Of a stretch of 22,854 bases of DNA, positions 5,589-22,854 are shown piece after piece (positions within the stretch are counted from its first letter, which is position 1; every line of letters starts with the position of its first letter). Position numbers and translations under genes: made by a program. The notes under the pieces are model-generated. The model worked only from the letters and a program-made list of their open reading frames with translations, ran no database searches and was not told the origin of the DNA. The stretch is taken from IMG/VR virus record IMGVR_UViG_644736359_000002. The stretch is one strand, 5' to 3'. The DNA comes from a virus. Lineage: Duplodnaviria > Heunggongvirae > Uroviricota > Caudoviricetes.

Positions 5589-5638
5589 AAAATACGTGAC
5601 AAATTATTATGAGCAAAATGGTGTATGTCACGTATTTT
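5589..5638. promoter_or_regulatory. 50-bp palindromic site: perfect 13-bp inverted repeat AAAATACGTGACA / TGTCACGTATTTT separated by 24 bp
   Basis: Read directly: left arm 5589-5601, right arm 5626-5638; lies in the ybcK-ybcL intergenic region. Confidence 0.6.
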
Positions 5639-6406: not shown

Positions 6407-6415
6407 GGTGAGAGT

Positions 6416-7213
6416 ATGCTGGCAAGAGGTAAGACTAACTTAAAGATCGAAGAAATACGGATGCATAAACATCATGAGATTCATAGGGTTAAGCCTCTTA
6501 TGCCAGCTTTGTGTCGTATCCGTCAGGGAAAGAAAGTTATCAATTGGGAGACGCATACTTTAACTGTTGATAATAATCAAATAATATTATTTCCTTGTGG
6601 TTATGAATTTTATATTGAGAATTATCCTGAAGCAGGGCTTTATCTTGCAGAAATGCTTTACTTACCCATTGATTTAATTGAGAGTTTCCAAAAACTTTAT
6701 ACGGTAACTGATCAAATACGTAACAAAACAAGTTTCTTTTTACCTCAGAATCCTGAGTTAATATATTGTTGGGAGCAACTAAAAACATCTGTTTCCCGAG
6801 GCTTCTCAACTAAAATTCAGGAGCACTTAGCAATGGGCGTTCTACTTTCGTTAGGAGTGAATCATGTTAATCATTTACTTTTATCATATAGTAAACAATC
6901 ATTGATAAGTCGTTGTTATAACCTGCTGCTATCCGAACCCGGCACAAAATGGACAGCAAACAAGGTTGCTCGATATCTCTACATTTCTGTTTCTACATTA
7001 CATCGCCGTCTAGCAAGCGAGGGGGTAAGTTTCCAAAGTATACTGGACGATGTGAGGTTAAATAATGCGTTGTCTGCTATACAAACGACGGTAAAACCTA
7101 TAAGCGAGATTGCCAGAGAAAATGGTTATAAGTGTCCTTCTCGTTTTACTGAAAGATTTCATAATCGTTTTAATATAACACCAAGAGAGATAAGAAAAGC
7201 TTCCAGAGAGTAA
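6416..7213 (+). CDS. ybcM: AraC/XylS-family transcriptional regulator (265 aa)
   Basis: C-terminal AraC-type HTH ([21 protein letters not shown]...[30 protein letters not shown]); starts 10 nt after ybcL stop with GGGTGAGAG RBS. Confidence 0.88.
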
Positions 7214-7277
7214 AAGTGTTTTAAGAAGGAGCAATTCTATCGATTTTGATTTTGGGAAATCAACACGGCATAATTAT

Positions 7278-7306
7278 GTCACCGGAGCCTGAACAACTCC
7301 GGTGAC
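7278..7306 (+). terminator. Perfect 10-bp stem hairpin downstream of ybcM (candidate terminator or island-boundary element)
   Basis: GTCACCGGAG (7278-7287) / CTCCGGTGAC (7297-7306), 9-nt loop; weak U-tract (TTCTGCGC), so terminator function is uncertain. Confidence 0.35.
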
Positions 7307-7427
7307 TTCTGCGCTAAACGGGGACGTTTATGCGCACATACAATCCAAACTCTCTTCTCCCTTCACAGATGCAGAAATGCACCTGCAATTCTTTGCATCT
7401 AGCGTTTGACCTCTGCGGAGGTGAAGC

Positions 7428-7883
7428 GTGAACCTCTCACAAGACGGCATCAAATTACATCGCGGCAACTTCACCGCTATCGGTCGGCAGATCCAGCCTT
7501 ATCTGGAGGAGGGCAAATGCTTTCGCATGGTGCTTAAACCGTGGCGTGAGAAACGCAGTCTTTCCCAGAATGCACTCAGCCACATGTGGTACAGCGAAAT
7601 CAGTGAATACCTCATCAGCAGGGGTAAAACGTTCGCCACTCCAGCTTGGGTAAAAGATGCTCTCAAACACACATATCTCGGTTATGAAACCAAAGACCTG
7701 GTTGATGTCGTAACCGGTGATATCACCACTATCCAGTCGTTACGCCATACCTCCGACCTTGATACCGGAGAGATGTATGTCTTCCTGTGTAAGGTTGAAG
7801 CCTGGGCGATGAATATTGGCTGCCACCTGACTATTCCGCAGAGCTGCGAGTTCCAGCTGCTGCGTGATAAGCAGGAGGCGTAA
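7428..7883 (+). CDS. ybcN: YbcN-type DNA-binding (base-flipping) protein of the Nin region, 151 aa
   Basis: GTG start with GGAGGTG RBS; sequence recalled as DLP12 YbcN; followed by overlapping ninE/ybcO/rusA. Confidence 0.8.
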
Positions 7884-8053
7884 TGGCTACACCGCTTATT
7901 CGTGTCATGAACGGACACATCTACAAAGTACCAAATCGTCGTAAGCGTAAGCCTGAGCTGAAACCATCCGAAATACCAACACTGCTCGGATATACCGCCA
8001 GCCTGGTTGATAAAAAATGGTTGCGACTGGCAGCAAGGAGGAATCATGGCTGA
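7883..8053 (+). CDS. ninE: NinE-like small protein (56 aa); below the ORF-track size cutoff
   Basis: Translated by hand: [56 protein letters not shown]; start overlaps ybcN stop (TAATG), stop overlaps ybcO start (ATGGCTGA). Confidence 0.75.
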   Translation: MATPLIRVMNGHIYKVPNRRKRKPELKPSEIPTLLGYTASLVDKKWLRLAARRNHG

Positions 8054-8336
8054 TTTGAGAAAAGCAGCGCGTGGTCGGGAATGCCAGGTAAGAATCCCTG
8101 GCGTATGTAATGGCAATCCTGAAACGTCTGTACTGGCACATATCCGGCTGGCTGGATTGTGCGGTACCGGTATCAAACCGCCAGACCTGATTGCCACCAT
8201 TGCATGTTCTGCCTGTCACGACGAGATCGACCGTCGCACGCATTTTGTTGACGCTGGATATGCAAAAGAATGCGCGCTGGAAGGTATGGCGAGAACGCAG
8301 GTTATCTGGCTGAAAGAGGGGGTAATTAAGGCGTGA
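8046..8336 (+). CDS. ybcO: YbcO (DUF1364-type cysteine-rich putative nuclease), 96 aa from the ATG at 8046
   Basis: [23 protein letters not shown]...[10 protein letters not shown]; AGGAGG RBS; the track ORF starts at an upstream in-frame codon. Confidence 0.82.
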
Positions 8337-8695
8337 ATACCTACAATATCACATTACCCTGGCCGCCGAGCAATAATCGCTATTACCGCCATAATCGCGG
8401 GCGCACGCACATCAGCGCAGAGGGGCAGGCATACCGCGAAAACGTCGCCCGAATCATTAAAAACGCAATGCTGGATATCGGCCTGGCTATGCCTGTGAAA
8501 ATCCGCATTGAGTGTCACATGCCGGATCGCCGTCGCCGTGACCTGGATAATCTACAAAAGGCCGCTTTTGACGCACTCACCAAAGCAGGTTTCTGGCTGG
8601 ATGATGCTCAGGTCGTTGATTACCGCGTTGTGAAGATGCCGGTTGTCAAAGGTGGAAAGCTGGAACTGACCATCACTGAACAGGGAGATGAATGA
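8333..8695 (+). CDS. rusA: RusA Holliday-junction resolvase (120 aa)
   Basis: [26 protein letters not shown]...[25 protein letters not shown] recalled as RusA; GTG start overlapping ybcO stop. Confidence 0.88.
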
Positions 8696-8832
8696 TGTTT
8701 GAGTTTTATATGGCAGAACTTCTTCGCCACCGCTGGATGCGCCTGCGCTTATATCGTTTCCCCGGTTCTGTTTTGACCGATTACCGAATACTGAAGAATT
8801 ACGCCAAAACACTGACAGGAGCAGGAGTATGA
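8692..8832 (+). CDS. ylcG: YlcG-like small protein (46 aa); below the ORF-track cutoff
   Basis: Hand translation [46 protein letters not shown]; ATG overlaps rusA stop (ATGA). Confidence 0.6.
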
Positions 8833-8917
8833 AGTCAGAGATAACAATCAACTAATACTGTTTTGTTGATTTTTGCTTGTAATTGGCGTTCTGGTCTGAG
8901 TTTTGTGGAGTAAGTTG

Positions 8918-9301
8918 ATGCGTGATATTCAGATGGTTCTTGAGCGTTGGGGAGCGTGGGCGGCTAATAATCATGAAGATGTGACCTGGTCGTCCATTGC
9001 CGCCGGTTTTAAGGGATTAATTCCTTCAAAAGTAAAATCTCGCCCACAATGTTGTGACGATGACGCGATGATCATTTGCGGGTGCATGGCCCGTCTGAAA
9101 AAGAACAACAGCGATTTGCATGATTTATTAGTAGATTATTATGTAGTCGGTATGACATTCATGTCACTGGCAGGTAAGCATTGCTGCTCTGATGGTTATA
9201 TCGGGAAAAGGTTACAGAAGGCTGAGGGCATAATTGAAGGGATGTTAATGGCATTAGATATCCGGTTAGAGATGGATATCGTTGTTAATAACTCTAATTA
9301 A
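8918..9301 (+). CDS. quuD: Late-gene antiterminator Q (phage 21/82-type), 127 aa
   Basis: [22 protein letters not shown]...[16 protein letters not shown] recalled as DLP12 QuuD; GGAG RBS before the ATG at 8918. Confidence 0.88.
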
Positions 9302-9316
9302 TATGCCAATTGTTTA

Positions 9317-9352
9317 CTAAAAATTATTAAAAATGGGGCGTTGAGACGCCCC
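9317..9352 (-). terminator. Candidate - strand terminator for the porin gene
   Basis: GC stem GGGGCGT/ACGCCCC (9335-9352) followed on the - strand by a U-rich tract (+ strand 9317-9334 is A-rich). Confidence 0.4.
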
Positions 9353-9440
9353 CAAAAATAAAGGGTAATATATAACAGAAGGTTTATATAGTTAGAAGCA
9401 AGGTTGTGCTTCTAAAGGAAGTGGCTTGAGGGAGCCACTT

Positions 9441-9481
9441 ATATGTTGGGGAGGCAAAGCCTCCCGCAACATATCTTTTTC
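9441..9481 (+). terminator. Strong intrinsic terminator in the Q-downstream leader (tR'-like)
   Basis: About 15-bp stem ATATGTTGGGGAGGC / GCCTCCCGCAACATAT with AAA loop, followed by CTTTTT. Confidence 0.65.
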
Positions 9482-9994
9482 GTAATCAGATTAGAACTGA
9501 TACACCAGACCTACAGCGACGATGTCGTCGGTATCAATACCAGCTGTTTTGGTAAACTTACTATCGTCAATTAAGTTGATTTTGTAATCAACAAAAGTGG
9601 ACATGTTTTTATTAAAGTAGTAAGTAGCACCGACATCGACATACTTGACTAAGTCTCGGTCACCATGAACACCAAGGTCTTTACCTTTTGACTGAAGGTA
9701 AGCAACAGATGGTCGCAGACCGAAGTCAAACTGATATTGTGCTACTGCTTCAAAGTTTTGTGCTTTGTTTGCAATATGGTTATTACCAAAAACGGTCATA
9801 TTCTGAGTTTCAGAATATGTGGTAGCCAGATAGATATTGTTCGCATCATATTTCAGGCCTGCAGCCCATACTTCCGCATTTTTGCCGGAGGCATTGAATT
9901 TGCTCTTACCATAGGCGACCTGACCGTCAGTGCGATCTGATTTAGCATAGGTTGCACCCACGCCGAATCCTTCATACTCATAAGTAGTGGAGAA

Positions 9995-10003
9995 ACCGAA
10001 ACC
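9995..10003. repeat. 9-bp target-site duplication ACCGAAACC (left copy)
   Basis: Identical 9-mer immediately flanks both IS1 ends. Confidence 0.9.
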
Positions 10004-10018
10004 GGTAATGACTCCAAC

Positions 10019-10522
10019 TTATTGATAGTGTTTTATGTTCAGATAATGCCCGATGACTTTGTCATGCAGCTCCACCGATTTTGAGAACGACAGCGACTTC
10101 CGTCCCAGCCGTGCCAGGTGCTGCCTCAGATTCAGGTTATGCCGCTCAATTCGCTGCGTATATCGCTTGCTGATTACGTGCAGCTTTCCCTTCAGGCGGG
10201 ATTCATACAGCGGCCAGCCATCCGTCATCCATATCACCACGTCAAAGGGTGACAGCAGGCTCATAAGACGCCCCAGCGTCGCCATAGTGCGTTCACCGAA
10301 TACGTGCGCAACAACCGTCTTCCGGAGCCTGTCATACGCGTAAAACAGCCAGCGCTGGCGCGATTTAGCCCCGACATAGCCCCACTGTTCGTCCATTTCC
10401 GCGCAGACGATGACGTCACTGCCCGGCTGTATGCGCGAGGTTACCGACTGCGGCCTGAGTTTTTTAAGTGACGTAAAATCGTGTTGAGGCCAACGCCCAT
10501 AATGCGGGCAGTTGCCCGGCAT
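10019..10522 (-). CDS. insB: IS1 InsB reading frame (transposase made as InsAB' by frameshifting)
   Basis: 167-aa ORF overlapping the insA 3' end, matching recalled IS1 InsB. Confidence 0.88.
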
Positions 10523-10716
10523 CCAACGCCATTCATGGCCATATCAATGATTTTCTGGTGCGTACCGGGTTGAGAAGCGGTGTAAGTGAACTGCAGTTGC
10601 CATGTTTTACGGCAGTGAGAGCAGAGATAGCGCTGATGTCCGGCGGTGCTTTTGCCGTTACGCACCACCCCGTCAGTAGCTGAACAGGAGGGACAGCTGA
10701 TAGAAACAGAAGCCAC
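10441..10716 (-). CDS. insA: IS1 InsA (91 aa)
   Basis: [43 protein letters not shown] recalled as IS1 InsA. Confidence 0.9.
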
Positions 10717-10771
10717 TGGAGCACCTCAAAAACACCATCATACACTAAATCAGTAAGTTGGCAGCATCACC

Positions 10772-10780
10772 ACCGAAACC
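10772..10780. repeat. 9-bp target-site duplication ACCGAAACC (right copy)
   Basis: Identical 9-mer immediately flanks both IS1 ends. Confidence 0.9.
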
Positions 10781-11938
10781 ATCACCATTGGCTTCAGTTA
10801 CGTCAGTGCGGTCATTTTTACCCTGATACTGAGCAGCAAAGTTCAGGCCATCGACCAGACCAAAGAAGTCGTTGTTACGATAGGTTGCAACACCAGTGGT
10901 GCGACCAGTCATGAACACATCTGTTTGGGTCCAGGTATCGCCACCGAATTCTGGCAGAACGTCAGTCCACGCACCGATGTCGTATGCTACACCGTAGTTA
11001 CGGCCGTAATCGATTGAGCCGTAGTCACCGAATTTCAGGCCTGCAAATGCAAGACGGGTTTTGTCTTTGGAGGAACCTTGAGATTCAGCGCGGTTGCCTT
11101 TGAATTCATATTCCCACTGACCGAAACCAGTCAGTTGATCGTTGATTTGGGTTTCACCTTTGAAGCCAAGACGGGCATAAGTAGTATCACCATCATCTGC
11201 ATCGTTAGAGGAAAAGTAGTGCTTGGCATTAACTTTCCCGTACAGATCCAGCTTGTTACTGTCTTTATTATAAATTTCAGCTGCCTGAGCAGACATCGCC
11301 ATCAGTACTGATGCAGCTACAGCAGAAATTGCCACTGTTAATTTTTTCATCGTGAGCCCTTTTTTTTGAACTATTATTAAAAAATGATGTCACTGCGCGA
11401 TAAATATTCATCTAATCAATGTGATTATTTCAAGATGTAAGTTTTAGTTTCTCATTTAATTTGTGAAGTAGATCTCTATTTTTATCTGAACTTTTTCTAT
11501 CGAAACCTATTTATGGCTCTTATTTGAACAAAAATAAACCTATTAGCTAATTTATATTAATGGCTGTTATTTATGGGGGTTCTATAATTCAGTGGTTTAA
11601 TTTAAATCAACTAAAAATAACGCCGGAAATTATTTATTGGTTATTTGTTGAGGTTTTCTTATATATTTGTGGTGGTGTTTTGAACACTCGGTAGCATTCT
11701 CATAAATATCATTCAGTGGTTTACGTACGTAAAAAATTGGTTATGCTGTTAAGAGTGGTTACTTCGTCACACAGCTTAAACCCGCCGTCGAGCTGGTTTT
11801 TCCATTTTTTGAGTCTCGATATTAGCTGATAACTCAATACCTGAGTTATTCACTGACTCCGAGTCTGTTACGTTTCTGCTTTTTTGCGATACGTTGTATT
11901 CCCTCAATTTACACCCGCTTTGTCTGCGAGGTGGGGTT

Positions 11939-12154
11939 ATGAAATCCATGGATAAGTTAACAACGGGTGTCGCCTATGGCACCTCAGCAGGTAGTGCCGG
12001 TTACTGGTTTTTACAGCTGCTCGATAAAGTCACGCCCTCACAGTGGGCAGCAATAGGTGTGCTGGGTAGCCTGGTATTTGGCCTGCTGACGTACCTGACA
12101 AACCTTTATTTCAAGATTAAAGAAGATAAGCGCAAGGCTGCGAGAGGTGAATAA
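11939..12154 (+). CDS. essD: Class II holin (phage 21 S-type pinholin) with dual-start motif, 71 aa
   Basis: [26 protein letters not shown]... with Met1/Met4 dual start; GAGGTGG RBS; recalled as EssD/S21. Confidence 0.88.
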
Positions 12155-12651
12155 TGCCTCCATCATTACGAAAAGCCGTTGCTGCTGCTATTGGTGGCGG
12201 AGCAATTGCTATAGCATCAGTGTTAATCACTGGCCCAAGTGGTAACGATGGTCTGGAAGGTGTCAGCTACATACCATACAAAGATATTGTTGGTGTATGG
12301 ACTGTATGTCACGGGCATACAGGAAAAGACATCATGCTCGGTAAAACGTATACCAAAGCAGAATGCAAAGCCCTCCTGAATAAAGACCTTGCCACGGTCG
12401 CCAGACAAATTAACCCGTACATAAAAGTTGATATACCGGAAACAACGCGCGGCGCTCTTTACTCGTTCGTTTACAACGTGGGCGCTGGCAATTTCAGAAC
12501 ATCGACGCTTCTTCGCAAAATAAACCAGGGCGATATCAAAGGCGCATGTGATCAGCTACGTCGCTGGACATATGCTGGCGGTAAGCAATGGAAAGGTCTC
12601 ATGACTCGTCGTGAGATTGAGCGTGAAATCTGTTTGTGGGGTCAGCAATGA
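12154..12651 (+). CDS. rrrD: SAR (signal-arrest-release) endolysin, phage 21 R-type lysozyme, 165 aa
   Basis: Gly/Ala-rich N-terminal SAR segment [20 protein letters not shown] followed by a lysozyme domain; start overlaps essD stop (TAATG). Confidence 0.88.
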
Positions 12652-13109
12652 ACAGAGTAACCGCGATTATCTCCGCTCTGGTTATCTGCATCATCGTCTG
12701 CCTGTCATGGGCTGTTAATCATTACCGTGATAACGCCATTACCTACAAAGCCCAGCGCGACAAAAATGCCAGAGAACTGAAGCTGGCGAACGCGGCAATT
12801 ACTGACATGCAGATGCGCCAGCGTGATGTTGCTGCACTGGATGAAAAATACACGAAGGAGTTAGCTAATGCGAAAGCTGAAAATGATGCTCTGCGTGATG
12901 ATGTTGCCGCTGGTCGTCGTCGGTTGCACATCAAAGCAGTCTGTCAGTCAGTGCGTGAAGCCACCACCGCCTCCGGCGTGGATAATGCAGCCTCCCCCCG
13001 ACTGGCAGACACCGCTGAACGGGATTATTTCACCCTCAGAGAGAGGCTGATCACTATGCAAAAACAACTGGAAGGAACCCAGAAGTATATTAATGAGCAG
13101 TGCAGATAG
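12648..13109 (+). CDS. rzpD: Rz-like i-spanin (153 aa)
   Basis: N-terminal TM segment then coiled-coil-like region; ATG overlaps rrrD stop (ATGA). Confidence 0.82.
12868..13050 (+). CDS. rzoD: Rz1-like o-spanin lipoprotein embedded in the +1 frame of rzpD (60 aa)
   Basis: Lipobox LVVVGC and proline-rich mature region [15 protein letters not shown]; entirely within rzpD. Confidence 0.78.
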
Positions 13110-13140
13110 AGCTGCCCATATCGATGGGCAACTCATGCAA

Positions 13141-13434
13141 TTATTGTGAGCAATACACACGCGCTTCCAGCGGAGTATAAATGCCTAAAGTAATAAAACC
13201 GAGCAATCCATTTACGAATGTTTGCTGGGTTTCTGTTTTAACAACATTTTCTGCGCCGCCACAAATTTTGGCTGCATCAACAGTTTTCTCCTGTCCAATT
13301 CCCGAAACGAAGAAGTGATGGGTGATGGTTTCCTTTGGTGTTACTGCTGTCGGTTTGTTTCCAACAGTAAACGTCTGTTGAGCACATCCTGTAATAAGCA
13401 TTGCCAGAGCGGCAGAAAACAACATTTTTTTCAT
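13141..13434 (-). CDS. borD: Bor-family outer-membrane lipoprotein (97 aa from MKKML)
   Basis: MKKMLFSAALAMLITGCAQQ lipoprotein signal; recalled as Bor homologue; internal ATG at 13432-13434 chosen over the upstream-extended track ORF. Confidence 0.85.
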   Translation of the reverse strand: MKKMLFSAALAMLITGCAQQTFTVGNKPTAVTPKETITHHFFVSGIGQEKTVDAAKICGGAENVVKTETQQTFVNGLLGFITLGIYTPLEARVYCSQ

Positions 13435-13794
13435 CTTATTATCCTGCATTGTTAAAAACGGCAGAATCCTATGTGACAACAATTAAACGATAGTTAAATG
13501 GATTGATGAAAATTAAAACTATATAGGTGGATGCTCAGCCTATTGGAGGAGGGGGGGCACTCAGAATCCTGTGGAATGAAATAAACCGCTCTTTCTGTCC
13601 ATTACCCTTTTAGCTGCGCTGTATCGTCGCCGTATTCCCGCATTAACCATGACCGTAGCCCGACGGGGAATTCCTTCTGCGTGAGTGTGCGGGAATAATC
13701 AAAAACGATGCACACCGGGTTTTACTGTGCTGACAGACGCAGGGTTACCCTCATAGTCGCTTTTCCGGTGCGATGGTGGAAGAAACCGGGATGT

Positions 13795-13989
13795 TTATTC
13801 ATCATCACTCTGGATTGATGTATATGCTCTCTTTTCTGACGTTAGTCTCCGACGGCAGGCTTCAATGACCCAGGCTGAGAAATTCCCAGACCCTTTTTGC
13901 TCAAGAGCGATGTTAATTTGTTCAATCATTTGGTTAGGAAAGCGGATGTTGCGGGTTGTTGTTCTGCGGGTTCTGTTCTTAGTTGACAT
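13795..13989 (-). CDS. Small conserved lambda-right-end protein (64 aa), possibly ribbon-helix-helix-like
   Basis: ATG at 13987-13989; surrounding DNA closely resembles the lambda right end as recalled; function unknown. Confidence 0.5.
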   Translation of the reverse strand: MSTKNRTRRTTTRNIRFPNQMIEQINIALEQKGSGNFSAWVIEACRRRLTSEKRAYTSIQSDDE

Positions 13990-14188
13990 GAGGTTGCCCC
14001 GTATTCAGTGTCGCTGATTTGTATTGTCTGAAGTTGTTTTTACGTTAAGTTGATGCAGATCAATTAATACGATACCTGCGTCATAATTGATTATTTGACG
14101 TGGTTTGATGGCGTAGATGCACGTTGTGACATGTAGATGATAATTATTATCATTTTGCGGGTCCTTTCCGGCGATCCGACAGGTTACG

Positions 14189-14200
14189 GGGCGGCGACCT
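14189..14200. other. cosN cohesive-end sequence GGGCGGCGACCT (lambda-type cos); cosB-like region continues to the Nu1 start
   Basis: Exact 12-nt lambda cohesive-end sequence, preceded by ACAGGTTACG and followed by CGCGGGTTTTCGCTATTTATGAAAATTTTCCGGTTTAAGG, as at the lambda genome ends (recalled). Confidence 0.85.
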
Positions 14201-14377
14201 CGCGGGTTTTCGCTATTTATGAAAATTTTCCGGTTTAAGGCATTTCCGTTCTTCTTCGTCGTAACTTAATGTTTTTATTTAAAATACCCCCTGAAAAGAA
14301 AGGAAACGACAGGTGCTGAAAACGAGCTTTTGGGCCTCTGTCGTTTCCTTTCTCTGTTTTTGGCCGTGGAATGAACA

Positions 14378-14953
14378 ATGGAAGTCAACAAAAAGCAGCT
14401 GGCTGACATTTTCGGTGCGAGTATCCGTACCATTCAGAACTGGCAGGAACAGGGAATGCCCGTTCTGCGAGGCGGTGGCAAGGGTAATGAGGTGCTTTAT
14501 GACTCTGCCGCCGTTATAAGATGGTATGCCGAAAGGGATGCTGAAATTGAGAACGAAAAGCTGCGCCGGGAAGTTGAAGAACTGCGGCAGGCCAGCGAGA
14601 CAGATCTCCAGCCAGGGACTATTGAGTACGAACGCCATCGACTTACGCGTGCGCAGGCCGACGCACAGGAGCTGAAAAATGCCAGAGACTCCGCTGAAGT
14701 GGTGGAAACCGCATTCTGTACTTTCGTGCTGTCGCGGATCGCAGGTGAAATTGCCAGTATTCTCGACGGGATCCCCCTGTCGGTGCAGCGGCGTTTTCCG
14801 GAACTGGAAAACCGACATGTTGATTTCCTGAAACGGGATATCATCAAAGCCATGAACAAAGCAGCCGCGCTGGATGAACTGATACCCGAACACGGCACTG
14901 GTCGGCGTGCAGGTGGACTCGGAGCAGTTCGGCAGCCAGCAGGTGAGCCGTAA
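14378..14953 (+). CDS. nohD: Terminase small subunit Nu1 homologue with altered C-terminus (reads out of frame into J sequence after the deletion junction)
   Basis: [43 protein letters not shown]... recalled as near-identical to lambda Nu1 up to ...AAALDELIP; the final ~20 residues ([21 protein letters not shown]) are not Nu1-like. Confidence 0.8.
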
Positions 14954-17729
14954 TTATCATCTTCGCGGGCGCATTCTGCAGGTGCCGTCGAACTATAACC
15001 CGCAGACGCGGCAATACAGCGGTATCTGGGACGGAACGTTTAAGCCGGCATACAGCAACAACCCGGCCTGGTGTCTGTGGGATATGCTGACCCACCCGCG
15101 CTACGGCATGGGGAAACGTCTTGGTGCGGCGGATGTGGATAAATGGGCGCTGTATGTCATCGGCCAGTACTGCGACCAGTCAGTGCCGGACGGTTTTGGC
15201 GGCACGGAGCCGCGCATCACCTGTAATGCCTACCTGACCACGCAGCGTAAGGCGTGGGATGTGCTCAGTGATTTCTGCTCGGCGATGCGCTGTATGCCGG
15301 TATGGAACGGGCAGACGCTGACGTTCGTGCAGGACCGACCATCAGATAAGGTGTGGACCTATAACCGCAGTAATGTGGTGATGCCGGATGATGGCGCGCC
15401 GTTCCGCTACAGCTTCAGCGCCCTGAAGGACCGCCATAATGCCGTTGAGGTGAACTGGATTGACCCGAATAACGGCTGGGAGACGGCGACAGAGCTTGTT
15501 GAAGATACGCAGGCCATTCTCCGTTACGGTCGTAACGTCACGAAGATGGATGCCTTTGGCTGTACCAGCCGGGGGCAGGCACACCGCGCCGGGCTGTGGC
15601 TGATTAAAACGGAGCTGCTGGAAACGCAGACCGTGGACTTCAGCGTGGGTGCCGAAGGGCTTCGCCATGTACCGGGCGATGTCATTGAAATCTGCGATGA
15701 TGACTATGCCGGTATCCGCACCGGCGGGCGCGTGCTGGCGGTAAACAGCCAGACCCGGACGCTGACGCTCGACCGTGAAATCACGCTGCCATCTTCCGGC
15801 ACCACGCTGATAAGCCTGGTTGACGGGCAGGGGAGTCCGGTCAGCGTGGAGGTTCAGTCCGTCACCGACGGCGTGAAGGTGAAAGTGAGCCGTGTTCCTG
15901 ACGGCGTTGCTGAATACAGCGTATGGGGGCTGAAGCTGCCGACGTTGCGCCAGCGCCTGTTCCGCTGCGTGAGTATCCGTGAGAACGACGACGGCACGTA
16001 TGCCATCACCGCCGTGCAGCATGTACCGGAAAAAGAGGCCATCGTGGATAACGGGGCGCACTTTGACGGCGACCAGAGCGGCACGGTAAATGGTGTCACG
16101 CCGCCAGCGGTGCAGCACCTGACCGCAGAAGTCACCGCAGACAGCGGGGAATACCAGGTGCTGGCCCGCTGGGATACGCCGAAGGTGGTGAAGGGCGTGA
16201 GCTTCCTGCTTCGCCTGACCGTGGCAGCGGATGACGGCCGTGAGCGACTGGTCAGCACGGCCCGGACGACGGAAACCACTTACCGCTTCACACAACTGGC
16301 TCTGGGGAACTACAGGCTGACAGTCCGGGCAGTAAATGCGTGGGGGCAGCAGGGCGAGCCGGCGTCGGTATCGTTCCGGATTGCCGCACCGGCAGCGCCG
16401 TCGCAGATTGAGCTGACACCGGGGTATTTTCAGATAACCGCCACGCCGCATCTTGCGGTTTATGATCCGACGGTACAGTTTGAGTTCTGGTTCTCGGAAA
16501 AGCGGATTGCGGATATCAGGCAGGTTGAAACCACAGCACGCTATCTTGGCACGGCGCTGTACTGGATAGCCGCCAGTATCAATATCAAACCGGGCCATGA
16601 TTATTATTTTTACATCCGCAGTGTGAACACCGTTGGCAAATCGGCATTCGTGGAGGCTGTTGGCCAGCCGAGTGATGATGCATCCGGCTATCTGAATTTT
16701 TTCAAAGGAGAGATAGGGAAAACCCATCTGGCTCAGGAGTTGTGGACGCAGATTGATAACGGTCAGCTTGCGCCTGACCTGGCGGAAATCAGAACGTCCA
16801 TCACGGATGTCAGTAATGAAATCACGCAGACCGTCAATAAGAAACTGGAAGACCAGAGTGCGGCAATCCAGCAGATACAGAAGGTTCAGGTTGATACAAA
16901 TAATAACCTGAACAGCATGTGGGCTGTGAAGCTGCAGCAGATGCAGGACGGACGCCTTTATATCGCGGGTATTGGTGCCGGTATTGAGAATACCCCTGAC
17001 GGTATGCAGAGTCAGGTGCTGCTGGCGGCGGACAGGATTGCGATGATTAATCCTGCGAATGGCAACACAAAGCCGATGTTTGTTGGTCAGGGCGATCAGA
17101 TATTCATGAACGAAGTGTTCCTGAAATATCTGACGGCTCCCACCATTACCAGCGGCGGTAATCCTCCGGCATTTTCCCTGACACCGGACGGGCGGCTGAC
17201 GGCGAAAAATGCCGATATTAGCGGTAACGTGAATGCGAACTCCGGGACGCTCAACAACGTCACGATTAACGAGAACTGCCGGGTTCTGGGAAAACTGTCC
17301 GCGAACCAGATTGAAGGCGATCTCGTTAAAACAGTGGGCAAAGCTTTCCCCCGGGACTCCCGTGCACCGGAGCGGTGGCCATCAGGGACCATTACCGTCA
17401 GGGTTTATGACGATCAGCCGTTTGACCGGCAAATTGTTATTCCGGCGGTGGCATTCAGTGGCGCTAAACATGAGCAAGATCATACTGATATCTACTCCTC
17501 ATGCCGTCTGATAGTACGAAAAAACGGTGCTGAAATTTATAACCGAACGGCTCTGGATAATACGCTGATATATACGGGTGTTATTGATATGCCTGCAGGC
17601 AGTGGTGTAATGACACTGGAATTTTCTGTATCGGCATGGCTGGTAAATGGCTGGTATCCCACAGCAAGTATCAGCGATTTGCTGGTTGTGGTGATGAAGA
17701 AAGCCACTGCAGGCATCATGATTAGCTGA
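14883..17729 (+). pseudogene. N-terminally truncated tail tip/host-specificity protein J (lambda J from about residue 190 to the C-terminus), no native start or RBS
   Basis: Frame opens right after a stop at 14880-14882 and reads [41 protein letters not shown]..., recalled as internal lambda J sequence; the last ~150 residues differ from lambda J. Confidence 0.85.
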
Positions 17730-17747
17730 ATTTTATAACCCAGATAC

Positions 17748-17774
17748 GGGCGCCAGAAATGGCGCCTTTTTTAT
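17748..17774 (+). terminator. Candidate intrinsic terminator between J and the side-tail-fibre gene
   Basis: GGGCGCC (17748-17754), loop AGAAAT, GGCGCC (17761-17766), then TTTTTT. Confidence 0.55.
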
Positions 17775-17787
17775 TTGTGGAGTGAAT

Positions 17788-20133
17788 ATGGCAGTACAGA
17801 TTTCAGGTGTGCTGAAAGATGGTGCGGGAAAACCAATACAGAACTGCACTATTCAACTGAAGGCAAAGCGTAACAGCACCACGGTACTGGTGAACACGGT
17901 GGCCTCTGAAAATCCGGATGAAGCCGGGCGTTACAGCATGGATGTTGAGCATGGCCAGTACAGCGTCACCCTGCTGGTTGAAGGTTTTCCGCCTTCACAT
18001 GCCGGAACCATTACCGTCTATGAAGGTTCCAGACCAGGTACGCTGAATGATTTTCTCGGTGCCATGACGGAAGATGATGTCATGCCGGAGGCATTGCGTC
18101 GTTTTGAGGCAATGGTGGAAGAAGCGGCACGCAACGCCGAAGCCGCCTCTCAGAGCGCAGCGGCGGCAAAGAAATCCGAAACTGCAGCGGCATCATCGAA
18201 GAACGCGGCGAAAACCTCAGAAACGAATGCAGCTAACAGCGCACAGGCGGCAGCGTCCTCGCAGACTGCATCGGCAAACTCCGCGACAGCAGCCAAAAAA
18301 TCAGAAACCAACGCGAAAAACAGCGAGACAGCCGCAAAGACGAGCGAAACCAACGCAAAGTCCAGCCAGACGGCAGCGAAAACCAGCGAAACGAATGCCA
18401 AAGCCAGTGAAACTGCGGCGAAAAATAGCCAGAATGCAGCAGCCGAAAGCGAGAGCGCGGCAGCCGGTTCTGCGACTGCAGCAGCTGGATCAGCAACTGC
18501 TGCGGCTAACAGCCAGAAAGCAGCGAAGACGAGCGAAACTAACGCAAAGTCCAGCCAGACGGCAGCGAAGACCAGCGAAACAAATGCCAAAGCCAGCGAA
18601 ACTGCGGCGAAAAGCAGTCAGGATGCAGCAGCCGAAAGCGAGAGTGCTGCAGCTGGTTCTGCAAGTGCGGCGGCTGCTTCTGCCACTGCATCAGCAAACA
18701 GTCAAAAAGCTGCAAAAACCAGTGAAACCAATGCAAAGACAAGCGAGACTGCAGCGGCGAACTCGGCGCAAGCATCGGCAGCAAGCCAGACAGCAGCTAA
18801 AGCAAGTGAGGATGCAGCCAGAGAGTATGCAAGCCAGGCAGCAGAGCCGTATAAATATGTCTTACAGCCACTGCCTGATGTGTGGATACCGTTTAACGAT
18901 TCACTGGATATGCTTGCTGGCTTTTCGCCTGGTTATAAGCAAATAACCGTAGGTGATGATGTTATTAAAATGCCATCCGATAAGGTTGTTAGCTTCAAAC
19001 GCGCATCAGGTGCAACATACATTAATAAATCAGGTGTATTAACCGTTGCTGAAGTTGACGAACCGCGATTTGAACGAGAAGGTTTGCTGATTGAAGGACA
19101 GAGAACAAACTATTTCAGAAATTCAAATACACCAGAAGCATGGAATAACACGGGTAGTGTGTCTGTTGAGTCGTTCGACAGTGATAAGGGGTTTAACTAT
19201 GGAAGGATAACTGTTATTAATGAAAATCCGACAGCACAAGGATATCAGGCAATTGCTGTAAACACGAATGATGCTTACACCTGCCCGGCAGGTTCTTATA
19301 CGACGATATCGTGTCTGACGAAAAGTGATAATTCCCGGTGTCGTGCAAGGTTCGGAAAAATGTCTGATAATGGTGCGTTTGTTTTTCATTCAGATGCAGT
19401 TCTGGATCCTGTTACGGGAAATGTTGTTCATGGAAATAATGTGACGGTGACGGCAGAAAGAGTCGGTGAATGGTGGTTGTTTACCGCCACTCTTTTTGCA
19501 GATGCGGAAATGATAATCAGCTCAAGATTTGAAATCCTGGCGATGCCTGGAATCAGTATTATCCCCAATGGCTCTACGTTAGATATTGCGATGCCTCAGG
19601 CGGAGATTGGGTCGTACAGGACGTCATTTATCATTACTGAAGGGGCTCCTGGCACTCGCTCCAGCGACATGGTGACAATACCTGTAAGAAACAATATTCA
19701 CCGATTACCATTCAGTGCTCTTGTTGAAGTTAATAAAAACTGGGATATCCCTCCCAGCAAATCACCATTAATCTTTAATGTTAAAGATTATCAGGAAAAT
19801 GGTCTGTTCACGCATGGATTCCGTGGTAATAATTTCTCTGATGCCGGTTCTCCTTTTATTTCTATGGGAGGGTGTAATAAATATGTGGCAACAACCCAGA
19901 GGAAAATCATTTCAGGCTTCCGTTGTGGCGCTGATGGAGATGTTCAGGCCGTATGTAATGGTGAATTATCTGTTGCGGCAAAAACAACATGGACTTCAAT
20001 TGTTCCACGGGCAGTATTGCGAATTGGAGGGCAGGGCACTAATGGGGAGTATCATCTTTTTGGTCATATCCGTAATCTGCGTATCTGGCATAAAGAATTA
20101 ACTGATGCGCAAATGGGGGAGAGTATTAAATGA
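17788..20133 (+). CDS. Side tail fibre protein, mosaic: lambda Stf-like N-terminus, Ala/Ser/Thr-rich repeat region, C-terminal domain with a LamG/concanavalin-like signature
   Basis: MAVQISGVLKDGAGKPIQNCTIQLKAKRNSTTV... resembles the lambda Stf N-terminus as recalled; GGAG RBS before the ATG at 17788; C-terminus ...NGEYHLFGHIRNLRIWHKELTDAQM resembles the LamG-type domain tail motif. Confidence 0.8.
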   Translation: MAVQISGVLKDGAGKPIQNCTIQLKAKRNSTTVLVNTVASENPDEAGRYSMDVEHGQYSVTLLVEGFPPSHAGTITVYEGSRPGTLNDFLGAMTEDDVMPEALRRFEAMVEEAARNAEAASQSAAAAKKSETAAASSKNAAKTSETNAANSAQAAASSQTASANSATAAKKSETNAKNSETAAKTSETNAKSSQTAAKTSETNAKASETAAKNSQNAAAESESAAAGSATAAAGSATAAANSQKAAKTSETNAKSSQTAAKTSETNAKASETAAKSSQDAAAESESAAAGSASAAAASATASANSQKAAKTSETNAKTSETAAANSAQASAASQTAAKASEDAAREYASQAAEPYKYVLQPLPDVWIPFNDSLDMLAGFSPGYKQITVGDDVIKMPSDKVVSFKRASGATYINKSGVLTVAEVDEPRFEREGLLIEGQRTNYFRNSNTPEAWNNTGSVSVESFDSDKGFNYGRITVINENPTAQGYQAIAVNTNDAYTCPAGSYTTISCLTKSDNSRCRARFGKMSDNGAFVFHSDAVLDPVTGNVVHGNNVTVTAERVGEWWLFTATLFADAEMIISSRFEILAMPGISIIPNGSTLDIAMPQAEIGSYRTSFIITEGAPGTRSSDMVTIPVRNNIHRLPFSALVEVNKNWDIPPSKSPLIFNVKDYQENGLFTHGFRGNNFSDAGSPFISMGGCNKYVATTQRKIISGFRCGADGDVQAVCNGELSVAAKTTWTSIVPRAVLRIGGQGTNGEYHLFGHIRNLRIWHKELTDAQMGESIK
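18352..18729 (+). repeat. Tandem duplication, 2 x 189 bp (63 codons), within the tail-fibre gene
   Basis: Unit beginning AACGCAAAGTCCAGCCAGACGGCAGCG recurs at 18352 and 18541; the copies encode near-identical TNAKSSQTAAKTSETNAKASETAAK... segments. Confidence 0.8.
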
Positions 20134-20411
20134 AAGATTTAACACTCAAATTTGCAGACAGGGCCGACTTTTCGGCCTTTATGGAGAGTATTGGCTATTA
20201 TGATGACGAGTCGATGCAGGATGATATTCTTATTGACGTGATAGGTAACGTGTACAAAGAAACCGGAGAACTGACTGAAGATGGCGAACCGGTATGTGTT
20301 AAGGAAGACGGATATTTTGTAAACGTGCGCATCATTAATGATGTAAAAAAATCGTCAATATTCGATAAATACGCGGTTGTTGTTGAGCATCAACTTCGTG
20401 GCTGGATGTGA
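20130..20411 (+). CDS. Hypothetical acidic protein (93 aa), translationally coupled to the tail-fibre gene
   Basis: ATG overlaps the stf stop (ATGA); no family recognised. Confidence 0.55.
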   Translation: MKDLTLKFADRADFSAFMESIGYYDDESMQDDILIDVIGNVYKETGELTEDGEPVCVKEDGYFVNVRIINDVKKSSIFDKYAVVVEHQLRGWM

Positions 20412-20420
20412 GGGAGACAA

Positions 20421-21125
20421 ATGGCTACATCGACAGTAATTCCAGGAGATATCACCACGCTAAAGGGAGATGTCAGTAAAACTAAGGAAGATATTTCCTC
20501 AATTAACGGAAAAGTATCAACGCTTCAGACTGATATGACCAGTGCAAAGCAGGATATCAGCACCAGATACACAAAAACTGAAGTTGATAATAAGCTGAAA
20601 AACAAACTGGAAGTGAACGATCTGGAAAGCGGTCGTTATGGTGGAGATTTTTACCCGTTGACTGGCCGTGAAGCGTTTTATATGTGGGGATTGGGCACGA
20701 CTACAGCGGCGGCAAACCTTTATCTTAATCCTGACCCTGCAATTTCGTCTGTACTGCGGTCAACATCGTCTATTCGCTATAAACATTCAGTAGAGACGAT
20801 AGATTCAGAGCACGCCGATCTCATTTTCAGGATGCGCCCTGTGTGGTACAGGTCGCAATGCGAAAATGACAGGCGTGACTGGGGATTCTACGGATTGATT
20901 GCCGAGGAAGTAGGAGAAATTGCCCCTCAGTTTGTACACTGGCGACCAGCTAACGAAGATGATGCTCCTGAAGCTATTTCCAGCAATGGCCTTGTTGCCG
21001 AAGGTGTAATGTACGAACGTCTGGTTGTTCCACTGATTCACCATATCCAGAAGCTGACTGAAAGAGTTGATGAACTTGAGTCAGAATTAAAGTTGTTATC
21101 CGTTTCCCGAAGCGATATCGGATAA
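20421..21125 (+). CDS. Short fibre-like protein with C-terminal intramolecular-chaperone (peptidase S74-like) domain, 234 aa
   Basis: GAGGGAGA RBS; N-terminal heptad-like segment; C-terminal SIRYKHSVETI...WGFYGLIAEEVGEIAPQFV...GVMYERLVVPLIHHIQKLTERVDELESEL fits the autoproteolytic chaperone domain of tail fibres/tailspikes. Confidence 0.65.
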   Translation: MATSTVIPGDITTLKGDVSKTKEDISSINGKVSTLQTDMTSAKQDISTRYTKTEVDNKLKNKLEVNDLESGRYGGDFYPLTGREAFYMWGLGTTTAAANLYLNPDPAISSVLRSTSSIRYKHSVETIDSEHADLIFRMRPVWYRSQCENDRRDWGFYGLIAEEVGEIAPQFVHWRPANEDDAPEAISSNGLVAEGVMYERLVVPLIHHIQKLTERVDELESELKLLSVSRSDIG

Positions 21126-21135
21126 AGGAGGAGTA

Positions 21136-21429
21136 ATGGATATAACACCTTTCCTTCATGCGCTTTGTGCTGTGGCTGCGCAGCTACTGATTGGTCTTTT
21201 TACCGGGAACTGGGCTTACGGGGCGATAGCCGGTTGTACGTTCTTCATTGCGCGTGAACACACCCAGGCAGAATATCGCTGGATCGAAATGTTCGGGCAT
21301 GGCAAGCGAATGAATATGCCGTGGTGGGGCGGTTTTGATACACGTGCATGGGATGTGGCAAGCCTGATGGATTTTGCTGTGCCGGTGGTGGCGTGTCTGC
21401 TGGTCTGGCTGTTGGTTAATCGTGGGTGA
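21136..21429 (+). CDS. Small predicted membrane protein (97 aa, two hydrophobic segments)
   Basis: Strong AAGGAGG RBS 6 nt before the ATG; hydrophobic N- and C-terminal segments; overlapping - strand ORFs judged spurious. Confidence 0.6.
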   Translation: MDITPFLHALCAVAAQLLIGLFTGNWAYGAIAGCTFFIAREHTQAEYRWIEMFGHGKRMNMPWWGGFDTRAWDVASLMDFAVPVVACLLVWLLVNRG

Positions 21430-22104
21430 AAAAAGGTGAGCTGTATATGCAACGGAGGAAGAAAACTCGTTGCTGGAAGCCTGGAAAAAGTATCGGGTGC
21501 TGCTAAACCGTGTGGACACTTCCGTAGCACCAGATATCGAGTGGCTTATTCAACCATAATAAACAGTATGTATATCATAGGTTATTAATTGTGAGTTTTT
21601 TCGGTGTGTTATTTGTTTGTTTGATGTTATGCTTTTGCGCCCCAAAAGGTTGTTTAGATGTATTTTATCAATTGATTTTCAATGTCGTTTAATAAAGAAA
21701 AATTAAGCAAGCTGGATGTTGGTTTTTTGTTAATTGAATGGTTCTAATAATGTTTTTTTACTGTTGTTGAATGTGACTTGATAAGAAATGCAAGTAAAAA
21801 TGATACTCTTTTTATTTTAAATTCAAACGGTTGACATATATATAGCAAGAGGTTTCAGGTGCGTTGTAGTGAGTTTATGTTAATAAAAAGTATAGTAAGC
21901 GTTGAAAAATGTAACTTTGAAATACGTTAGAATAAAAAACAATATACATATAATAATTTAATCTTAAATGAAATTTATTAAAATTTGCAAACTATAATTT
22001 TGTGTATAAAAATATAAATGCACATCATCCTGATTATGATTGTGTATTTAATTGGTTGTTATTTGACTGCTATCAACTTGTTTTAATTTTATGATAGGTG
22101 CAAG

Positions 22105-22854
22105 ATGGATTATGTTTGCTCCGTAGTTTTCATCTGTCAATCATTTGATTTAATTATAAACAGGAGAGTTATCTCGTTCAAAAAAAATTCATTGTTTATT
22201 GTAAGCGACAAAATTAGAAGGGAGTTACCAGTATGCCCCTCTAAACTAAGAATTGTTGATATAGATAAGAAAACATGTTTATCCTTTTTTATCGACGTGA
22301 ATAATGAGCTGCCTGGCAAATTTACTCTTGATAAGAATGGCTATATTGCTGAAGAGGAACCTCCATTATCGCTTGTTTTTTCTCTGTTTGAAGGGATTAA
22401 AATAGCAGACTCACACTCCCTTTGGTTAAAAGAAAGACTATGTATATCCTTACTTGCCATGTTCAAAAAACGCGAAAGTGTAAATTCATTTATACTAACA
22501 AATATAAATACATTTACCTGTAAAATTACTGGAATAATCAGTTTTAATATTGAGCGGCAATGGCATTTAAAAGATATTGCGGAATTGATTTATACGAGTG
22601 AAAGTTTAATAAAAAAAAGATTAAGGGATGAAGGAACGTCATTTACTGAAATATTGAGAGATACTAGGATGAGGTATGCAAAAAAACTCATAACTTCAAA
22701 CTCTTATTCTATCAATGTCGTAGCCCAGAAATGTGGCTATAACAGTACTTCATATTTCATATGTGCATTTAAAGATTATTATGGTGTCACGCCATCTCAT
22801 TATTTTGAGAAAATAATCGGCGTCACAGATGGAATAAACAAAACAATTGACTGA
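22105..22854 (+). CDS. appY: AraC-family transcriptional activator AppY (249 aa)
   Basis: [36 protein letters not shown]... recognised as AppY; C-terminal AraC HTH; AGGTG RBS; long AT-rich upstream region. Confidence 0.92.

Follow-up and report, generated by a model that had tools for sequence, protein, structure and literature searches.

Analysis of a 22,854-nt stretch of DNA (IMG/VR record IMGVR_UViG_644736359_000002; the whole stretch is hereafter the window) identified it as the lambdoid cryptic prophage DLP12 (argU/intD to appY) in the form carried by E. coli strains of the B, C and Crooks types, and located the scar at which its virion genes are missing. We consider it very probable that one deletion at a shared TACC joined the terminase small subunit gene Nu1 to the inside of the tail tip gene J, that the remnant of J (J′) is a young pseudogene acting as a silent sequence donor, and that the left breakpoint was not random. 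The features are listed in Table 1.

Table 1. Features around the Nu1-J junction, in window coordinates
Feature	Position	Strand	Basis
cosN, 12-nt cohesive-end sequence GGGCGGCGACCT	14189..14200	.	exact match to lambda left end and right-end context
Nu1′ fusion ORF, 191 aa, RefSeq WP_000453609.1	14378..14953	+	ORF list, Pfam, PGAP annotation
Native Nu1 part, codons 1-170 (lambda nt 191-699)	14378..14886	+	BLASTP vs lambda Nu1; K-12 nohD comparison
TGA closing the J frame immediately before the junction	14880..14882	+	sequence
Deletion junction, 4-bp microhomology TACC	14883..14886	.	three-way alignments with lambda and with two intact prophages
J′, partial tail tip / host specificity gene (codons 212-1159; intact length 1159 aa), 948 open codons	14883..17729	+	BLASTP to lambda J; Pfam; PGAP
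J-derived DNA in the Nu1 frame, 21 foreign codons + TAA (14951-14953)	14887..14953	+	BLASTP, frame reading
J′ tract copied into lambda J in laboratory coevolution, including 84-nt insertion vs lambda J	15794..17129	+	coordinate arithmetic, bioRxiv 10.1101/2020.11.02.365361
Intact side tail fibre gene, stf-like, WP_000290529.1	17788..20133	+	annotation; identical protein in intact prophages
Remaining tail-fibre module: 93-aa ORF, 234-aa tail fibre domain protein, 97-aa ORF, tail fibre assembly fragment	20130..21559	+	strain B annotation, ORF list

The Nu1-J junction in DLP12

The window runs from within intD to within appY and matches E. coli B at 100% identity over that span. Read through strain B (locus coordinate minus 1701 gives the window coordinate), in which argU stands ahead of intD, the prophage lies beside tRNA-Arg argU, with intD at its argU end and appY-ompT beyond its far end. 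The annotation of the identical strain B region contains the DLP12 gene set, including emrE, ybcK-L-M-N, ninE, ybcO, rusA, quuD, nmpC, essD-rrrD-rzpD, bor, ylcI and the Nu1 homologue, and the characteristic genes are 93-99% identical to those of K-12 DLP12. The Nu1-J junction was identical in 63 of 5,426 complete E. coli genomes, which led us to reject an assembly artefact as its source, and it was also present in three IMG/VR contigs. In itself the junction is ordinary, a scar in a known and already described defective prophage. Other, separate lesions of the same prophage are an early-region deletion at window 2302-2666 and an IS1 in nmpC.

Alignment to lambda and to intact prophages placed the breakpoint and revealed the microhomology. 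The Nu1 arm is native through codon 170 (window 14886), with 167 of 170 amino acids identical to lambda Nu1 by BLASTP, ending ...AAALDELIP just as the initial annotation had read it; the K-12 nohD match stops exactly at 14886, the point from which nohD and the intact prophages run on into a normal Nu1 C-terminus. The same annotation had seen Nu1 run on into J DNA in the wrong frame for about 20 codons and the J frame open directly behind a stop, and both observations were borne out; its estimate that J is entered at about residue 190 proved too low, since BLASTP and the intact-prophage alignment both placed the entry at codon 212 (window 14883 or 14887). TACC is common to the two parents (Nu1 ...CTGATACC|GGGG, J ...GTGCTACC|CGAAC); it occurs in Nu1 and in J of the intact prophages, and a single copy is kept in the window, as in microhomology-mediated deletion.

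Compared with the intact DLP12 of E. coli strain 1428, which occupies the same chromosomal locus, the window lacks exactly 15,439 bp, comprising the Nu1 C-terminus, A, W, B, C/Nu3, D, E, FI, FII, Z, U, V, G, T, H, M, L, K, I and the first 211 codons of J. Each arm is collinear with lambda and with this undeleted prophage at argU-appY, and one clean junction joins them, supporting the earlier proposal that a single deletion removed the terminase large subunit, head and tail shaft genes. One illegitimate, microhomology-mediated event at the common TACC would have fused Nu1 codon 170 to J codon 212, and the loss of the packaging, head and tail-shaft genes would leave the prophage unable to make virions. 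What remains is an intact cos site, which is kept upstream of Nu1, the 191-aa Nu1′, and a J′ pseudogene lacking promoter and ribosome-binding site, followed by intact side-tail-fibre genes.

Strain 1428 DLP12 is 100% identical to the window over 13500-14886 and 99.5% identical to the right arm; over most of the left arm identity is only about 97.6%, which makes strain 1428 a relative of the parent and not the parent itself. This difference bears on an alternative, which we regard as unlikely, in which the arrangement was built up by at least two deletions in succession, or by recombination with a second defective prophage, in place of one 15.4-kb event. The right arm is indeed far closer to other prophages (99.5-99.8%) than is the left arm (97.6-97.7%), the early-region deletion and the IS1 are further independent lesions, and BL21 shows that later deletions do build up. 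However, a single junction is present, the intervening genes have left no fragments behind, both arms keep the lambda order and orientation, and the junction is identical in all 63 genomes. Nested deletions ending at the same junction would look alike, and a single-event origin is the most parsimonious inference.

The initial annotation had named beforehand one outcome that would speak against a deletion, namely a Nu1 C-terminus and a J N-terminus that both belong natively to some other phage family. For this native architecture we found no supporting point, and the tail past residue 170 is J DNA in the wrong frame, while intact relatives are normal on both sides of the junction, their J genes carrying the missing N-terminus; we regard it as excluded for practical purposes.

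The Nu1 part of the fusion still matches the whole Pfam profile (Phage_Nu1 PF07471; residues 1-164 = profile positions 1-164 of 164, E=2.9e-101), identifying it as gpNu1. The C-terminus of native gpNu1 binds gpA, and a functional terminase is expected to have the large subunit gene A directly downstream. Here 21 foreign residues stand in place of residues 171-181 and gene A is deleted; Nu1′ would keep the parts for DNA binding and oligomerisation but not the last 11 native residues.

K-12 DLP12 (qsr′) occupies the same argU/intD-appY site, is 97.9% identical in the left arm up to Nu1 gene nt 509, shares the right end from tfaX to appY, and has likewise lost its morphogenesis genes by internal deletion. 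In contrast to the B type, in which the break lies inside Nu1 and J′, stf and other tail-fibre genes are kept, K-12 (nohD-aaaD-tfaD) encodes the full 181-aa NohD and an A fragment of ~100 codons joined to tfaD; its further lesions are IS3 and IS5, compared with IS1 in the B type. Since K-12 keeps the Nu1 C-terminus and A′ but lacks J and stf, it therefore represents an independent deletion from a fuller ancestor.

The J remnant as a probable silent sequence donor

The J′ frame is open from 14883 to the stop at 17727-17729. The initial annotation had described a 940-codon remnant with neither an interrupting stop nor a ribosome-binding site or native start; the absence of a stop and of a Shine-Dalgarno sequence held, whereas 940 is the length in amino acids of the ORF counted from the first start codon, GTG at 14907, and not that of the open frame given in Table 1. 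PGAP calls J′ a pseudogene "missing N-terminus". Its Pfam domains are Phage-tail_3, Ig_J, Ig_J_second, Phage_Tail_Tip and the C-terminal receptor-binding domain, without FNIII-A and the preceding residues; the gpJ (TipJ) domain series is therefore incomplete, while the intact J of strain 1428 has every domain. Nor does the frame have a start, ribosome-binding site and operon of its own: it opens after a TGA, and genes Z to I are absent.

Within the first 220 codons of J′ we found no Shine-Dalgarno-like pairing before in-frame starts, the best value being -4.7 kcal/mol compared with -7 to -12 kcal/mol for real genes nearby, and no promoter-like site was found near the junction. A GTG at 14943 lies 8 nt ahead of the Nu1′ stop, an arrangement from which weak termination-reinitiation of J′ may be possible.

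J′ differs from intact J genes by only 1-5 substitutions (99.8-100% identity), and from the J of an intact prophage at the ompW site, which also carries the same stf proteins as the window, by one synonymous change. Because the differences are so few, the intactness of J′ reflects youth and not selection; only 3.1% of possible substitutions create stops, and chance alone would be expected to leave the frame open (about 85-97%). These figures leave selection keeping J′ open unsupported. They also weigh against a functional, expressed J′ whose frame selection maintains, perhaps because the product is secreted, sits on the cell surface or serves as a defence decoy. Such a role could be read into 948 codons without a stop, the intact C-terminal J domains, the intact downstream tail-fibre genes and the GTG at 14943, which could permit reinitiation. 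It is nevertheless very unlikely: the open frame needs no selection to explain it, neither a Shine-Dalgarno sequence nor a promoter is present, the N-terminal part with FNIII-A found in intact J is gone, and BL21 has lost 866 bp of J′, not a multiple of 3, with no known consequence. From its sequence, J′ is a young, essentially unmutated pseudogene and not a working gene, presumably unexpressed.

The remnant continues to change. In BL21(DE3) the further 866-bp loss inside J′ is accompanied by the loss of everything from stf onwards, and J′ of isolate F1022 contains a clustered tract of 29 substitutions that is partly lambda-like; these represent continuing decay and gene conversion of J′.

The donor activity of J′ is taken from Borin et al. 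(PNAS 2021; bioRxiv 10.1101/2020.11.02.365361), who report in the passages on this gene that lambda J 1545-2796 recombined with REL606 ECB_00512 882-2217 and that phage fitness doubled. The ECB_00512 coordinates given there map exactly to window 14913-17729, and the 84-nt length difference from lambda J is reproduced. By this coordinate arithmetic and by identity with other B strains, J′ is apparently the "relict" J homologue ECB_00512 of REL606. J′ would then be a silent store of tail-tip sequence, which homologous recombination would copy into infecting lambdoid phages and which other J genes would in turn overwrite. In the same passages of Borin et al., ECB_00512 is simply a gene of phage origin, and its 5′ boundary, the fusion to Nu1, the parental prophage and the breakpoint do not appear there. 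The junction supplies the origin and exact boundary of a relict gene already shown to be a donor to evolving lambda, and the boundary would be useful for phage coevolution or phage-training work with REL606 or other B strains, the BL21 copy being shorter and frameshifted.

A recurrent deletion start in Nu1

The left breakpoint of the window deletion is not random. It sits on a recurrent deletion start at lambda nt 696-699, codon 169/170 of Nu1 (5′-CTGA|TACC|GGGG; GATACCGG), which has been joined to at least 30 distinct partners, always through a microhomology of at most 4 nt that begins at T696 (T, TA, TAC or TACC). Two Nu1-anchored deletions into tail-fibre genes in other cryptic lambdoid prophages, the Qin nohA-stfQ junction of K-12 (left breakpoint lambda ~718) and the Nu1-tail fibre junction of strain WCHEC020031 (lambda 697), lie within 2-19 nt of the B-type breakpoint, although the prophages, integration sites and right endpoints differ.

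We lean towards a site-specific DNA break or recombination activity at lambda nt 696-699 that repeatedly deletes rightwards into the late operon, a reading that refines the single-deletion explanation and does not replace it. Among Nu1 fusion proteins the point of divergence is residue 169 in 38 clusters, 170 in 9, 171 in 3 and 168 in 2, with at least 30 different tails, compared with a background of about 0.4 clusters per codon across Nu1 codons 141-167. In exhaustive IMG/VR scans the distinct events by lambda position were 0 at 688, 0 at 695, 1 at 696, 8 at 697, 1 at 698, 4 at 699 and 0 at 703. Diverged Nu1 alleles from other genera break at the same codon, and a second site, GGATA|CCG in gene A, accounts for two more endpoints; secondary sites were noted at lambda 425/427, 880, 2268/2271 and 2359/2362. 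Metagenome contigs contained 10 distinct rightward events and no leftward deletion from the site, a one-sidedness to which selection (cos-Nu1 kept, A lost) could contribute. The motif TA-N-N-C-G was present in 9 of 18 partner sites compared with 7% in the background (p=1.2e-6), but it was found post hoc. Against such an activity, in an unbiased sample only 4-6 of about 25 left endpoints fall at the hot spot, with most elsewhere, and no enzyme has been found. A search for proteins resembling Nu1 residues 1-100 brought up short proteins only and so yielded no unbiased breakpoint profile, and no account of a deletion hot spot in Nu1 or noh turned up in literature searches.

Several candidate causes of the hot spot were set aside. 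There is no hairpin at the site (z=-0.12). A strong DNA gyrase site was suggested by a core, ATACCGGGG, resembling the consensus ATACCGCCG, but the match to the whole published 133-bp consensus is average (36/133 vs a mean of 35.5, by a crude consensus match and not the published weight matrix), and the predicted cuts at 690|691 and 694|695 lie left of the junctions, 2-5 nt out of register. No IS is present at any junction, leaving no place for IS-mediated adjacent deletion, and overall homeology between Nu1 and the partner sites is not above background (7.8 vs 7.6 matches of 28). On reasoning alone, Chi-like attenuation of RecBCD is unlikely (GCTGGATG, 8-10 nt upstream, with two mismatches to Chi), and the positions or geometry do not fit CRISPR-Cas3, Int secondary sites, invertase pseudo-sites or IS200/IS608-type TTAC cleavage. 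By similar reasoning, a terminase nick at a pseudo-cosN (TACC|GGGG vs TTACG|GGGC, 8/22 positions matching) predicts microhomology anchored at 699, contrary to the data.

The nearest likenesses are the nick-site deletions at rolling-circle replication origins (M13, pC194) reportedly described by Michel and Ehrlich in 1986, and the gyrase-mediated deletions said to have been described by Ikeda. Like the Nu1 site, these hot spots combine one fixed endpoint with variable partners that share few bases around the crossover, and their partner sites favour a short sequence. Unlike the rolling-circle origins, to our knowledge Nu1 has neither a nicking protein nor an origin, and unlike the gyrase-mediated deletions its match is limited to a 7-9 nt core in the wrong register.

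Meaning for cryptic lambdoid prophages

Taken alone, the junction records how the well-known cryptic prophage of B, C and Crooks lost its virion genes. More tentatively, we propose that Nu1 codon 169/170 could be a sequence-specific site of breakage or strand exchange that launches rightward deletions to TA-N-N-C-G partners, a major and unnoticed route to cryptic lambdoid prophages. If so, terminase and virion genes would be lost through this site in lambdoid prophages of E. coli and related genera, with the B junction as one product, and the truncated Nu1 left behind might itself be under selection, perhaps by interfering as a decoy with the packaging of related phages. Because the site is intact in K-12 nohD, and likewise in nohA, the hot spot is directly testable there. 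If the Nu1 site does reflect a specific break or recombination activity, the domestication of enterobacterial prophages would be partly directed and repeatable, and not simply random decay.

The Nu1-J junction and its parental sequences

When window 14780-14990 was aligned with the Nu1/A and J regions of lambda, it emerged that the Nu1 match runs to ...CTGATACC, ending at 14886 (lambda 699), and that the J match begins at ...TACCCGAACACGG and continues. The first 170 residues of Nu1 are 167/170 identical to lambda and are followed by 21 unrelated residues before the frame ends at TAA 14951-14953, bearing out the initial annotation, which had Nu1 lambda-like to about 14886 and then reading J in the wrong frame. 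The J frame opens, as had also been described, right after a stop (TGA 14880-14882), with open codons from 14883; it aligns from lambda J residue 212 through its end, rather than from the residue of about 190 originally estimated. The remnant is likewise uninterrupted: 948 codons are open from 14883, and the first possible start, GTG 14907, gives the 940-codon length first reported. The junction is real, and the earlier interpretation correct except for the J coordinate.

Two intact prophages served as references. The ompW-site prophage of strain 2021CK-00607 (L004) carries Nu1, A to I and a 1159-aa J, together with stf and downstream proteins identical by accession to those of the window, which it matches at 97.7% over 12644-14886 and at 99.8% over 14880-21548. 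In strain 1428 the same argU-appY locus holds a DLP12 that seems complete (L005; NZ_CP023366.1 3,540,000-3,584,000), with immunity, replication (O/P) and Red genes, intact nmpC, Q, lysis genes, bor, ylcI, nohD, all genes from A to J, and stf. The window is collinear with this prophage to the left and right of the junction, and the part of the left arm at 13500-14886 is 100% identical to it. This prophage provides a natural model of what the common ancestor of the remnants in K-12 and B was like.

The parental sites are the same in both references, Nu1 reading ...GAACTGATACC before the breakpoint and GGGG after it, and J reading ...AGTGCTACC before and CGAAC after, which places the junction inside a 4-bp microhomology, TACC, at 14883-14886. 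Relative to the intact relatives 15,439 bp are missing, and relative to lambda 15,442 bp (700-16141). The lost genes are A, W, B, C/Nu3, D, E, FI, FII, Z, U, V, G, T, H, M, L, K and I, along with the final 11 codons of Nu1 and codons 1-211 of J, including the FNIII-A domain; the deletion thus took the terminase large subunit, head and tail shaft genes, as had been proposed.

Identity of the prophage and state of the J remnant

Megablast against complete E. coli genomes gave 100% matches to the junction region in the B, C, ATCC 8739 (Crooks) and ATCC 11303 strains, as well as in a group of wild isolates. The strain B copy is flanked by tRNA-Arg/intD on one side and appY-ompT on the other, which identifies the window as the DLP12 cryptic prophage site. 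NCBI annotates the Nu1 fusion (Nu1') as 'terminase small subunit' (191 aa, WP_000453609.1) and the J remnant (J') as 'TipJ family phage tail tip protein, incomplete, missing N-terminus'.

Features of the prophage in window coordinates
Feature	Coordinates	Strand	Remark
intD	1-1164	minus	window start inside gene
early-region replacement	2302-2666		365 bp
ybcK	3864-5390		508-aa recombinase-family protein
IS1 in nmpC	10001-10808		within porin gene
cosN	14189-14200		cos site retained
Nu1'	14378-14953	plus	terminase small subunit fusion
J'	14883-17729	plus	codons 212-1159 of 1159-aa J
tail-fibre-domain gene	20465-21134		234 aa
appY			window end inside gene

Several other differences were seen along the prophage. 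Compared with DLP12 of strain 1428, exo/bet/gam, kil, repressor, cro, O and part of P (~6.6 kb) are replaced by the 365 bp at 2302-2666. The IS1 is a second such lesion, which wild isolates sharing the Nu1-J junction do not have. The allele of the tail-fibre-domain gene is not the one found in strain 1428, where the product is 346 aa long, yet the flanks are 99.5-100% identical; the gene is a mosaic cassette inside the tail-fibre module.

The junction occurs in 63 of 5,426 complete genomes, the BL21 family included, as covered by a 200-nt junction-centred probe. In BL21(DE3) the Nu1' protein is unchanged and J' is short by a further 866 bp (15053-15918), not a multiple of three; this loss is frameshifting. 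Everything from about 18241, in stf, through ompT is also gone from BL21(DE3); this large deletion takes out appY, ompT, envY and nfrA. In K-12 DLP12, by contrast, the window match stops exactly at 14886 and shared sequence restarts at 21449; beyond 14886, K-12 has the normal Nu1 C-terminus and an A fragment (aaaD) joined to tfaD. Since the part missing from B survives in K-12 and vice versa, these are independent deletions from a fuller ancestor of the strain 1428 kind.

J' differs from the intact L004 J at one site, synonymous, and from the strain 1428 J at five, four of them synonymous. With so few differences, and with only 3.1% of possible J' substitutions creating a stop, an open frame is expected of a young pseudogene, and its openness says nothing about selection. 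Among the in-frame starts of the first 220 J' codons none has a Shine-Dalgarno match on par with neighbouring genes, in agreement with the original reading that the remnant lacks an RBS, and no promoter-like site was found near the junction; weak reinitiation at GTG 14943, 8 nt before the Nu1' stop, is a possibility. Residues 212-811 are ~98% identical to lambda J, whereas the C-terminal third belongs to another allele and carries an insertion of 28 residues, its closest phage relatives being PhiR46_1 (97.7%) and the PPompW phages and VT1-Sakai (~94%). Isolate F1022 (NZ_OY754357.1), with the same junction, has 29 clustered J' substitutions at 15232-16310, some restoring lambda residues, which suggests a gene-conversion tract from another J gene. 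At one IMG/VR locus (L143) the junction is of the B type and the J portion is only 96.5% identical.

As reported by Borin et al. (bioRxiv 10.1101/2020.11.02.365361), lambda coevolving with REL606 gained 49 changes when its J gene (1545-2796) recombined with the host gene ECB_00512 (882-2217), which they describe as the relict of an earlier phage. Phage fitness rose as a result, and on the host with the strongest resistance it doubled. Taking GTG 14913 as the start of ECB_00512, coordinate arithmetic places the tract at 15794-17129 on both scales, taking in the 84-nt length difference from lambda J. By this arithmetic on the published coordinates, ECB_00512 matches J'; B strains other than REL606 are identical to the window. 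The demonstrated activity of the remnant is thus as a passive homologous-recombination donor, which agrees with the finding that lambdoid phages acquire DNA from K-12 defective prophages, DLP12 nu1 included (De Paepe et al. 2014, PMC3945230). As an annotated pseudogene matching a published gene, the object is already known and, as a finding, ordinary.

A recurrent deletion start point in Nu1

Deletions anchored in Nu1 were also seen in other prophages. In the WCHEC020031 prophage at the bio/ybhB site, ...CTGATA is joined to a tail-fibre gene, and in K-12 Qin, nohA ...GAGTGAATATA is joined to stfQ. A protein search with Nu1', ranked by score, listed ~55 clusters of Nu1 fusion proteins, with partners including Lom, tail terminator U, J, portal, FI, FII, capsid E, Tfa, integrase and a host MFS transporter. 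Divergence from Nu1 began at residue 169 in 38 clusters, 170 in nine, 171 in three and 168 in two, compared with ~0.4 clusters per codon at codons 141-167 and 172-179; at least 30 different fusion tails were found, with right endpoints spread across the late region. Some Nu1 truncations at residues 74-77 (P0204-P0207) coincide with a BglII site at lambda ~415, and one is labelled a cloning vector (pMUT13), so part of the public-protein breakpoint spectrum reflects cosmid or vector cos fragments, not nature.

Because the protein list was score-ranked, IMG/VR was scanned exhaustively at the DNA level with patterns each asking for divergence directly after one lambda position. Deletion events numbered one at 696, eight at 697 (plus four point-variant loci), one at 698 (plus one point variant) and four at 699, the B type among them, those at 697 and 699 being distinct; 688 and 695 gave no loci, and 703 gave two, both point variants, with no deletions. 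The hot-spot loci are L009, L010-L025, L033, L107, L142-L149 and L151-L163. When 120 loci were sampled without bias, using the start codon of Nu1 as the anchor, ~25 distinct left endpoints fell in the first 2.7 kb, four to six of them at 697-699; other endpoint pairs were 425/427, 880 (twice), 2268/2271 and 2359/2362, the 2268/2271 site also reading GGATA then CCG at the break. Metagenome contigs showed ten distinct rightward events (into the late operon) at 697 and no leftward ones, and the same codon is used in other genera, where Nu1 alleles are only 79-86% identical. The B-type left end falls at a precisely bounded point from which deletions have repeatedly started.

Known partner parents carry T, TA, TAC or TACC directly before the retained part, a match starting at T696 and reaching at most four bases. 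Overall, partner sites resembled the Nu1 site no more than random TA sites did; TA-N-N-C-G, a motif noticed post hoc, occurred in nine of 18 partner sites, compared with a frequency of 7% among the TA sites of that region (p=1.2e-6). Right endpoints cluster too, with at least six events in 140 bp of J and three in 43 bp of the portal gene. On the reverse complement of the strain 1428 prophage these sites lie at 22563-22606, 34567-34596, 36750-36890 and 27639/27640, the last shared by two events whose left ends differ; lom of other prophages is also used, and the stfQ site ACCGCG(C/T)TGACAGACAATACGCAGG is shared by three events.

Microhomology of at most 4 nt, anchored on the left, would suit a 4-nt staggered cut flanking TACC between A695 and G700, or a fixed priming point. 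The right arm of the gyrase consensus core, GGTAT-GGGG-ATACCGCCG as given in the supplement of Sutormin et al. 2019, is resembled by the Nu1 site (ATACCGGGG) and the gene-A site (GGATACCGCG); a strong gyrase site as cause was rejected, the full 133-bp match being average and the predicted cuts lying 2-5 nt left of the junctions. The best 133-bp consensus match in the whole prophage (63/133, ~5.5 SD above the mean) lies at ~27599 on the same reverse complement (lambda-equivalent ~8021), 40 bp left of the doubly used site, which may be coincidence. No hairpin was found at the hot spot, and its geometry fits none of a Chi-like octamer, a cosN-like half site, IS elements, Cas3, or Int or invertase pseudo-sites.

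The ybcK product, for which we know of no function or target site, is one possible candidate agent behind the TA-centred events in Nu1. Selection for loss of gene A and retention of cos-Nu1 may add to the one-sidedness of the events; such selection cannot account for the single-nucleotide precision or the partner motif. Literature searches returned no published description of a Nu1 deletion hot spot, and it is this start point, apparently new to the literature, that lifts the finding out of the ordinary.
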